A stretch of 14,611 bases of DNA from Escherichia coli (GCF_003334255.1 NZ_QOWU01000079.1), one strand, 5' to 3'. Counted from the stretch's first letter, positions 3,293 through 4,082 are shown. Notes: generated by a model from the letters alone, not told the origin. A program made the numbers and translations.

Positions 3293-3985
3293 TTAATTGT
3301 GTCGCTTAAGGGTTTGTGACTGACTGATTAAGACCTTTCCAAAGACCATAAACCGATGTTCGTTTTCGCTGGTAATTCCCCATTCGCGGTAAATCTGATT
3401 ATCAGAAATTACCAGCAGTTTATCAGGTATCATTTGCAGTCGTTTGACGTAAATTTTATCATCAAAACCAAATACATATATACCATCCCCATCAAACTGA
3501 TTGATACTGATATCAACGAAGATGAGATCTCCTGGCTCAATGGTTGGACACATACTGTCCCCACGAACGTTGATAACTTTAATGTGATTTGCTGGTCGTC
3601 CACCAAACATCGATACAGCATTATCAGTTCTGTATTCAATGGCATGAATCACATCAATGACATCACCGCCCTGGATAAGGCCATTTCCCGCACTGGCACT
3701 GACATCCAGCATTTCAATACGGAATACATCCTTCACCTGCGCAACATCCTCACTAATACTGTTTTTACATACAGTATTACTTTTGAGGTCTGAGGTAAAG
3801 AGATCAGCAATATCAACACCTAAGCTCCTGGCAATATTACTCAGGGCTTGTTCAGTGAATTGTTTCTGCTTACCTGTTTCGAGGCGCGAGATATTCGCCG
3901 CATCCACTCCTATTGCTTCAGCGAGATCGGCGATTTTCATGTTCTTCGCCTGGCGAAGTTGTCTGACTCGATTTCCTATGTTCAT
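3293..3985 (-). CDS. cI: cI-type prophage repressor: N-terminal XRE-family HTH + C-terminal S24 (LexA-like) autopeptidase domain, 230 aa
   Basis: Track ORF; HTH (IADLAEAIGVDAANISRLETGK); Ala-Gly cleavage site (SASAGNG); catalytic Ser in GDSMCPT and Lys in VKRL; no Shine-Dalgarno before the ATG, consistent with a leaderless pRM-type transcript; divergent from cro. Confidence 0.9.
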   Translation of the reverse strand: MNIGNRVRQLRQAKNMKIADLAEAIGVDAANISRLETGKQKQFTEQALSNIARSLGVDIADLFTSDLKSNTVCKNSISEDVAQVKDVFRIEMLDVSASAGNGLIQGGDVIDVIHAIEYRTDNAVSMFGGRPANHIKVINVRGDSMCPTIEPGDLIFVDISINQFDGDGIYVFGFDDKIYVKRLQMIPDKLLVISDNQIYREWGITSENEHRFMVFGKVLISQSQTLKRHN

Positions 3986-4082
3986 GCGTTTATTACATTT
4001 CTTTATTGCGCGTTAAGCAAATCAACTTGCGCAAAATATTTGCGTGAAATAATATGCTCATCACGCAATATGTGGAGGTTAT
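3986..4082. promoter_or_regulatory. OR operator cluster with divergent pRM/pR promoters
   Basis: Three dyad-like sites about 24 bp apart (TTGCGCGTTAAGCAA 4006-4020; CGCAAAATATTTGCG 4030-4044; TGCTCATCACGCAA 4055-4068). Candidate pR -35 TTGCGC (4027-4032) and -10 TAATAT (4050-4055), 17-bp spacer; GGAGG RBS before cro. A TAATAA -10-like hexamer lies 4 nt before the cI ATG on the minus strand. Confidence 0.6.

Follow-up and report, generated by a model that had tools for sequence, protein, structure and literature searches.

The window, a stretch of 14,611 nucleotides of Escherichia coli DNA, belongs to a lambdoid prophage whose immunity group is that of mEp460, PhiR47_1, SfII and ST64B, and the immunity switch that it carries is an ordinary prophage on/off control region with nothing outside known kinds. 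The repressor gene cI (minus strand) and a cro-like gene (plus strand) diverge from a 97-bp intergenic control region (3986-4082). The explanation that we favor, and that taken as a whole is likely to be right, is an OR switch of the mEp460/SfII/ST64B group with a leaderless maintenance promoter (pRM) for cI and 15-bp operators. An earlier note on this DNA had proposed a lambda-style switch with both OL and OR, which is supported by an HTH and S24 repressor, a cro gene transcribed away from it, operators that cover both promoters and two sites at OL.

Positions 3150-4400 share 99.4-100% DNA identity with PhiR47_1, phiSTEC1575-Stx2k, mEp460 and the chromosome of E. coli strain G1/2, 95.6% with Stx2a_WGPS2 and 90.7% with Shigella phage SfII, and at least 80% of this segment is present in 1,040 of 5,426 complete E. 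coli genomes. The annotation of the neighborhood is that of a lambdoid early region (XRE-family repressor, HTH protein, YmfL, Rha, replication genes, antiterminator Q) and the cI/cro pair is annotated as such in PhiR47_1, SfII and Stx2a_WGPS2. An Rfam search of positions 2000-4600 returned no match. The switch was compared with those of the GenBank phages SfII, ST64B, Kp4871-1, phiNP, Eeyore and ENT47670, whose cI identities range from 96% down to 50%. Diversity was supplied by IMG/VR loci seeded with Klebsiella-type and Cronobacter-type repressors; an IMG/VR scan with the window's own cI yielded solely loci 99-100% identical to it. The resulting conservation set consists of 47 distinct switch sequences whose repressor recognition helix is identical to that of the window and which share phylogeny, so that invariant columns are non-independent observations. 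All relatives counted have an ATG at the expected position, loci failing this filter having been excluded. The features discussed below are collected in Table 1.

Table 1 Features of the cI-cro switch and its surroundings, in window coordinates
Feature	Position	Strand	Remarks
OL distal operator TTGCGCATTATGCAA	3198..3212		20.4 bits
OL proximal operator TTGCGAGATATGCAA	3222..3236		18.7 bits
cI intrinsic terminator hairpin	3254..3271	-	annotated as terminator in SfII
cI repressor gene	3293..3985	-	230 aa; HTH_3 at residues 7-62, Peptidase_S24 at residues 104-218
cI ATG and putative pRM +1 (A at 3985)	3983..3985	-	from ST64B dRNA-seq and alignment; no Shine-Dalgarno
TAATAA hexamer	3990..3995	-	4 nt upstream of cI ATG; present, unconserved
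pRM -10 TGTAAT	3992..3997	-	6 nt upstream of ATG; invariant in 47/47 relatives
OR-left operator TTGCGCGTTAAGCAA	4006..4020		OR3-like; exact consensus, 16.7 bits; centre at -28 of pRM
Predicted weak pRM -35 TTGCTT	4015..4020	-	17 bp from TGTAAT; coincides with right half of OR-left
Conserved TTGCGCAA	4027..4034		pR -35 and left half of family middle operator (4027-4041), degenerate here
pR -35 TTGCGC	4027-4032	+	part of conserved TTGCGCAA
Central palindrome CGCAAA-ATA-TTTGCG	4030..4044		centre 4037; half-sites everted
pR -10 TAATAT	4050..4055	+	17 bp after TTGCGC; TAAYAT in relatives
OR-right operator ATGCTCATCACGCAA	4054..4068		OR1-like; 14.7 bits; centred on pR +1 (~4061)
cro Shine-Dalgarno GGAGG	4074..4078	+	from sequence and anti-SD duplex
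cro-like gene	4083..4343	+	86 aa, HTH
Operator-like dyad GTGCGTAAGGCGCAC	4104..4118		cro codons 8-12; 50 bp from OR-right; 11.7 bits

The cI product matches the Pfam families HTH_3 (1.8e-10) and Peptidase_S24 (8.7e-19), matches UmuD too, and contains SASAG/NG, GDSM and YVKRL, the LexA-type cleavage and catalytic motifs. It is predicted to consist of an N-terminal HTH domain, with the recognition helix AANISRLE, and a C-terminal LexA-like S24 autopeptidase with an Ala-Gly cleavage site and a Ser/Lys dyad. In two public phage records, mEp460 and phiNP, cI is annotated to begin at Met16, a start that truncates the DNA-binding domain; it was rejected because it would delete HTH helix 1, and a corrected start is given here. 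CI aligns with ClgR and with a 434-type repressor domain from residues 2-3 onward, the HTH_3 model begins at residue 7, and the first 15 residues are kept at the protein level in repressors down to 50% identity. It follows that the ATG at 3985 is the start codon, and cI starts with ATG in the window and in all relatives that passed the ATG-position filter.

As the earlier note had observed, no Shine-Dalgarno sequence precedes this ATG: the best duplex between the 3' end of 16S rRNA and the 25 nt upstream reaches -0.9 kcal/mol. The corresponding values for the neighboring genes are -10.0 kcal/mol for cro, -11.6 kcal/mol for ymfL and -11 to -12.3 kcal/mol for three downstream ORFs. The same note had suggested that cI is leaderless, a proposal supported by the start site of its ST64B ortholog. 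ST64B is resident in Salmonella Typhimurium SL1344, where its cI is SL1344_1967, and dRNA-seq places the primary transcription start site of this gene at 2072244, the same position as the start of its coding sequence, with a 5'UTR of 0 (Ramachandran et al. 2014, PMC3963941, Table S1 row P821). Position 2072244 is also given as the early-stationary start site, so that two growth phases, early and late stationary, agree; the late-stationary read counts are low (1 and 7) and the row is not flagged 'L' by the authors (PMC3963941). The published promoter string of ST64B cI ends in ...AATGTAATGAACGCA (PMC3963941), a pR start is reported on the opposite strand at 2072168 and a secondary cI start lies 292 nt upstream (both PMC3963941, Table S7). 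The published strings match the ST64B GenBank record exactly, with pRM +1 being the first base of sb38 and pR +1 lying 22 nt before sb39. When aligned to the window, the ST64B pRM promoter corresponds to 4034..3985 (42/50 identical) with +1 at 3985, on the A of the cI ATG, and the pR start corresponds to 4061. Transferred in this way, the two start sites of this phage would be 76 bp apart. By homology, the maintenance cI transcript is very likely leaderless and, as it would begin on the A of the start codon, would need no Shine-Dalgarno sequence.

The pRM -10 element can be assigned from conservation. TGTAAT, read as ATTACA on the opposite strand, is invariant while both of its flanks vary, and it lies 6 nt from the ATG in 46 of the 47 relatives and 7 nt in the remaining one. 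The nucleotides between it and the ATG are free to vary (GCGTTT, TCACTC, GCGCCC, GCGTCC and others). TGTAAT occupies -12 to -7 relative to the mapped ST64B cI start site and is without the usual A at -11. The -10-like TAATAA to which the earlier note had pointed is indeed present, however, its position reads TAATGA, TAATGG or TAATAG in relatives, so it does not hold as the -10 element, and TGTAAT is invariant instead. At the predicted -35 position relatives read TTGCAC or TTGCAT. A consensus scan gave a single minus-strand match in the intergenic region, the promoter-like TCCACA-16-TATTAT at 4076..4049, which was rejected since its -35 is unconserved in relatives. In the opposite direction, pR would start at about 4061, giving a 22-nt cro leader that includes the GGAGG.

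An operator matrix built from 61 distinct family sites has the form TTGCG-N5-CGCAA (consensus TTGCGTAATACGCAA), with positions 1-5 and 11-15 conserved and the middle five free. Exact matches to TTGC-N7-GCAA occur five times in the window against 0.17 expected, three of them inside the two control regions, and matrix hits of at least 14 bits occur four times in 14.6 kb against 0.27 expected, all four being the OL and OR sites. Two hits within the rha gene, at 5678-5692 and 5725-5739, were rejected as operators as they are at chance level (chance alone predicts about three hits of 8 bits or more in the window). These dyads are probably recognized by CI and probably also by Cro, whose recognition helix PATLSRIE resembles AANISRLE of CI. 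OR-left contains the pRM -35 and keeps its half-sites invariant among relatives while its spacer varies. OR-right overlaps the last two bases of the pR -10 and is conserved in every relative, always 48 bp away from OR-left. Most differences between SfII and the window fall in the operator spacers, with half-sites kept. The order OR-left, 6 bp, TTGCGCAA, 19 bp, OR-right is constant at cI identities of 50-100%.

The two related sites at OL that had been described earlier are confirmed as consensus matches located downstream of the cI terminator. Their dyad centres, 3205 and 3229, are 24 bp apart (22-24 bp in relatives), both sites are conserved in all relatives, and the pair lies about 790 bp from OR. 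Inspection by hand of the relatives' alignment beside the OL sites revealed no conserved -35/-10 pair with canonical spacing that could represent pL. For ST64B, expression of a small RNA and of two genes that lie downstream of cI increases along with that of lytic genes (PMC7067206), which fits a repressor-controlled leftward promoter in that phage.

A further dyad, GTGCGTAAGGCGCAC, lies inside cro. It is the fifth best matrix hit in the window and, taken by itself, is at chance level. All relatives with the same recognition helix have TTGCG-N5-CGCA(A/T/C) at this position, with scores of 13.5-18.7 bits. Among 29 distinct cro 5' ends, residue 8 is always encoded by TTG where it is Leu and residue 11 always by TCG where it is Ser, whereas all four CGN codons are found for Arg9, both Lys codons occur at Lys10 and other nearby Leu and Ser codons vary. 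Synonymous sites within this part of cro are thus fixed only at the positions critical for the operator. Phage HK022 offers two precedents, according to the work of Carlson and Little (1993) as cited in PMC8053113: a CI operator additional to those of OR and downstream of them, and DNase patterns resembling those of a loop over an interval of 53 bp.

The earlier note had described OR as tripartite, with three dyad-like sites at about 24-bp spacing. The geometry stands: all three dyads are real, their centres (4013, 4037 and 4061) follow one another at exactly 24 bp, and OR in its entirety forms an imperfect inverted repeat (72%) around 4037. Their equivalence does not stand, as only the outer two fit the consensus. 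The pentamers of the central dyad are everted (CGCAA...TTGCG vs TTGCG...CGCAA), giving -47.8 bits in operator register, and taken alone its 6-bp arms hardly exceed what chance would give in 97 bp. The dyad is also lineage-specific. Its right arm falls in the least conserved part of the switch and is absent from ST64B, the Klebsiella-type phages, Eeyore, phiNP and ENT47670, and position 4039 varies within the clade, in SfII and one near-identical IMG/VR locus. The regular triplet is the true geometry of the window sequence but probably does not represent three like operators; the central palindrome is a by-product of TTGCGCAA together with a second TTGCG that is specific to this lineage, and it probably does not act as a standard operator.

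TTGCGCAA itself is invariant in 47/47 sequences, and TTGCGCA(A/T) is retained down to 34% cI identity. A middle operator beginning at this element scores 9-14 bits in the Klebsiella-type phages, Eeyore and phiNP (for example TTGCGCAATTCGCTA, 14.2 bits, and TTGCGCAAGTCGTAA, 9.7 bits) vs -5.2 bits in the window, and its centre is 21 and 27 bp from those of the neighboring operators. The best 15-mers between the outer OR sites of the window are half-site-only, at 4020-4034 (-0.5 bits), 4040-4054 (-3.2 bits) and 4027-4041 (-5.2 bits). By sequence comparison, the family OR is tripartite at 21/27 bp, and the right half of its putative middle site is decayed in the window, SfII and ST64B. Thus, two consensus sites overlap the pRM -35 and the pR +1, and a third that is clear in relatives is degenerate here; the heterogeneous half-sites noticed earlier are accounted for by the everted central dyad together with this degenerate middle site. 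Relative to pRM, the centre of a site at 4027-4041 would fall at -49; in lambda the corresponding site is centred at -42. The two TTGCG motifs at 4027 and 4040 were also considered as a direct repeat of the lambda CII type (TTGC-N6-TTGC, 10-bp register) and rejected, their register being 13 bp and not 10 bp.

Alternatively, the sites centred at 4013, 4037 and 4061 could be three equivalent operators, with the central palindrome serving as OR2, bound cooperatively with its neighbors and activating pRM. The even spacing of the three centres, shared with the OL pair, speaks for this, as do the similar OR spacings of lambda (24 and 23 bp), the 24 bp that separate OR2 from OR1 and the members of the OL pair in HK022, the symmetry of the whole OR about 4037 and the use of the same TTGCG/CGCAA pentamers; moreover, with 48 bp between the outer sites, cooperativity of adjacent pairs would require a further site that bridges them. 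Everted half-sites, however, should be unreadable by a rigid HTH dimer fitted to TTGCG-N5-CGCAA, the matrix score is -47.8 bits, and the right arm is missing from the relatives named above, which retain the same helix, outer sites and 48-bp frame. The variable position 4039 and a centre at -52 of pRM also count against a central OR2, which we consider unlikely. A non-CI protein, such as Cro with another dimer geometry or a host factor, might bind the palindrome in its place. Its arms are perfect over 6 bp, its position over the spacer of pR is exactly the point about which the switch is symmetric, and Cro, with its CI-like recognition helix, should read the same pentamer. Yet relatives with a closely similar Cro lack the palindrome, and palindromes with 6-bp arms are not rare in a 97-bp AT-rich region, making such a site highly improbable.

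A more radical departure from the preferred reading supposes that this lineage lost its classical middle operator and relies instead on OR-left, OR-right and the in-cro site, spaced by 48-50 bp and joined by small CI loops, with everted half-sites read by flexibly tethered DNA-binding domains. A small loop of this kind has been suggested for the 53-bp OL2-OL3 interval of HK022 (PMC8053113), and if the idea were true, lambdoid cooperativity and pRM control would operate here with a geometry unlike the adjacent-pair rule of lambda; we regard it as quite unlikely. With respect to pRM, cI could instead be made from a transcript starting further upstream, either of an establishment type in or beyond cro or from another intergenic promoter, with an A/U-rich leader devoid of a Shine-Dalgarno sequence. 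The secondary ST64B start demonstrates that leadered cI mRNA exists in the family, the 25 nt before the ATG are A/U-rich, and TCCACA-16-TATTAT is at hand as a candidate promoter. However, TCCACA overlaps the variable stretch ahead of the cro Shine-Dalgarno sequence and is therefore unconserved, the secondary ST64B promoter has no counterpart in the window, the primary ST64B start is on the ATG in two datasets, and both TGTAAT and its distance to the ATG are held constant. An upstream start as the source of cI is decidedly unlikely. It should be noted that such a transcript can coexist with a leaderless pRM transcript, as pRE and pRM do in lambda.

Returning to the favored explanation, transcription from pR (TTGCGC-17-TAATAT) would start in the middle of OR-right, such that CI bound there would block lytic transcription. 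The weak pRM (TTGCTT-17-TGTAAT) would start on the A of the cI ATG and produce the leaderless maintenance mRNA, and occupation of OR-left, which covers the pRM -35, would shut off cI at high repressor concentration. TTGCGCAA would provide the pR -35 and, in relatives, also the first half of the middle operator, which here appears decayed to a half-site. The OL pair and the in-cro operator may serve as partners when CI binds cooperatively or in loops. Binding of this kind is reported for HK022, where CI joins OL and OR in a loop in vivo (PMC8053113). With HK022 looping as precedent, we infer that cooperativity, OL-OR looping and pRM autoregulation could operate in this phage as well.

The gain is mainly one of annotation. 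It consists of an operator consensus, coordinates for promoters and operators, and corrections to the pRM -10 and the cI start; the immunity type concerned is present in about one fifth of complete E. coli genomes and also in some Stx2-converting phages and in Shigella SfII. The degenerate middle operator and the conserved in-cro operator are modest leads on the geometry of repressor cooperativity among lambdoid phages.

The switch shares with lambda divergent cI and cro genes, a repressor of HTH and S24 type that is predicted to be autocleavable, operators over both promoters and a separate OL. The lambda pRM is leaderless and reads TAGATT, 6 nt, ATG, the same -10-to-ATG geometry as in the window. 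In contrast, lambda operators are 17 bp long and those of the window 15 bp (5+5+5), with no sequence similarity between them, and OR of the window has only two consensus sites, 48 bp apart, with a degenerate middle. The OR1 equivalent of lambda lies between -35 and -10, whereas OR-right is centred on the pR +1, and the pRM and pR starts of lambda are 82 bp apart as compared with a predicted 76 bp here. The window further differs in having an OL of two sites at only about 790 bp from OR and an extra site inside cro. Among solved phage-repressor folds, the closest to the CI DNA-binding domain is the designed 434-derived dh434 (1sq8), with an E-value of only 2e-4 and an alignment that starts from residue 2; 434 operators are 14-bp ACAA-N6-TTGT sites and the 434 recognition helix differs from that of the window CI.

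HK022 (X16093) encodes a homologous CI (43% identity over residues 19-228), and its operators are 15-bp dyads with 5-bp half-sites and a 5-bp spacer, the same geometry as in the window. In both, a pair of OL sites spaced by 24 bp lies immediately beyond cI and the pR -10 is directly followed by an OR site, with OL-OR distances of about 700 bp in HK022 and 790 bp here. In the HK022 sequence, the annotated intervals OR1 and OR3 read TGAAC-N5-GTTCA, and the other annotated operators are weaker variants of it; as its half-site is TGAAC and that of the window TTGCG, the two phages should be heteroimmune. The annotation of HK022 also places a clear OR2 within the spacer of pR; this phage has OR spacings of 33 and 24 bp, and carries its extra operator about 300 bp downstream, as opposed to 50 bp in the window. 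ST64B (sb38/sb39; SL1344_1967) belongs to the same family, with a cI 84% identical and an identical recognition helix, a 97-bp intergenic region laid out in the same way, and operator consensus and TGTAAT-6 nt-ATG in common with the window, and its leaderless pRM and its pR have been mapped experimentally. It differs in reading CGCAA-GT-TTGCT where the window has the central 24-bp-spaced palindrome, in a shorter cro (74 aa) and in the region downstream of cro. Overall, the switch is lambda-type in function, closest to HK022 in operator geometry and repressor ancestry, and a member of the ST64B family.

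An operator-like dyad within the 5' portion of cro is probably a fourth site for CI and Cro, judging from its conservation in sequence. At the corresponding position, relatives carry TTGCG-N5-CGCAx, scoring 13.5-18.7 bits against the operator matrix built from related switches, and comparison of these relatives showed that the synonymous positions of the cro codons involved are fixed at operator-critical bases only. Three weak matches to the same matrix inside the Rha-family gene rha do not rise above chance expectation.

Features in and around the switch region and in related phage records
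Feature	Location	Details
Operator-like dyad GTGCGTAAGGCGCAC	window 4104-4118	spans cro codons 8-12; OR-right lies 50 bp upstream
ymfL	window 4336-4893	185 aa; GTG start overlapping cro end; next gene after cro
Weak operator-matrix matches (three)	window 5623-5739	inside rha; spanning ~115 bp; 5.7, 8.6 and 11.0 bits
cI as annotated, from internal Met16	mEp460 (L002) 4144-4791	
cI as annotated, from internal Met16	phiNP (L087) 746-1396	

In the Cronobacter-type ENT47670 group (L088 and relatives), the half-sites upstream of cro are ATGCG/CGCAT, an everted pair, CGCAT-ATT-ATGCG, adjoins OR-right and the central 8-mer, which in the window holds the pR -35 element, is TTGCGCAT. The 8-mer is altered in parallel with the half-sites, hinting that it is itself read by the repressor. 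Everted half-site pairs, in turn, may be a recurrent element of this switch family.

The Met16 start used in the public records of mEp460 and phiNP shortens cI to 215-216 aa and removes HTH helix 1. In SfII, ST64B and RefSeq, cI is annotated at its full length of 230-231 aa. ymfL is labelled cII in SfII and the Stx2a phages, but judged by size it is no homologue of lambda CII.

The ~720 bp separating the leftward early genes from cI (window 2570-3292) are devoid of genes in the RefSeq annotation and, in an Rfam search over 2000-4600, gave no match, while two small plus-strand ORFs are annotated in the mEp460 counterpart. The homologous gap of ST64B, a prophage of Salmonella SL1344, contains the small RNA STnc1310, and an SL1344 start site lies 469 nt beyond cI. 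Both are expressed together with lytic genes or close to them. The region could represent a pL leader or a moron.

cro is longer in the window than in ST64B, and sequence comparison found no homologue in the window of the promoter sequence for a secondary cI start site present in ST64B. That start site (L085 coordinate 409), located 292 nt upstream of the ATG and antisense to the cro 3' end, resembles a lambda pRE-like establishment promoter.
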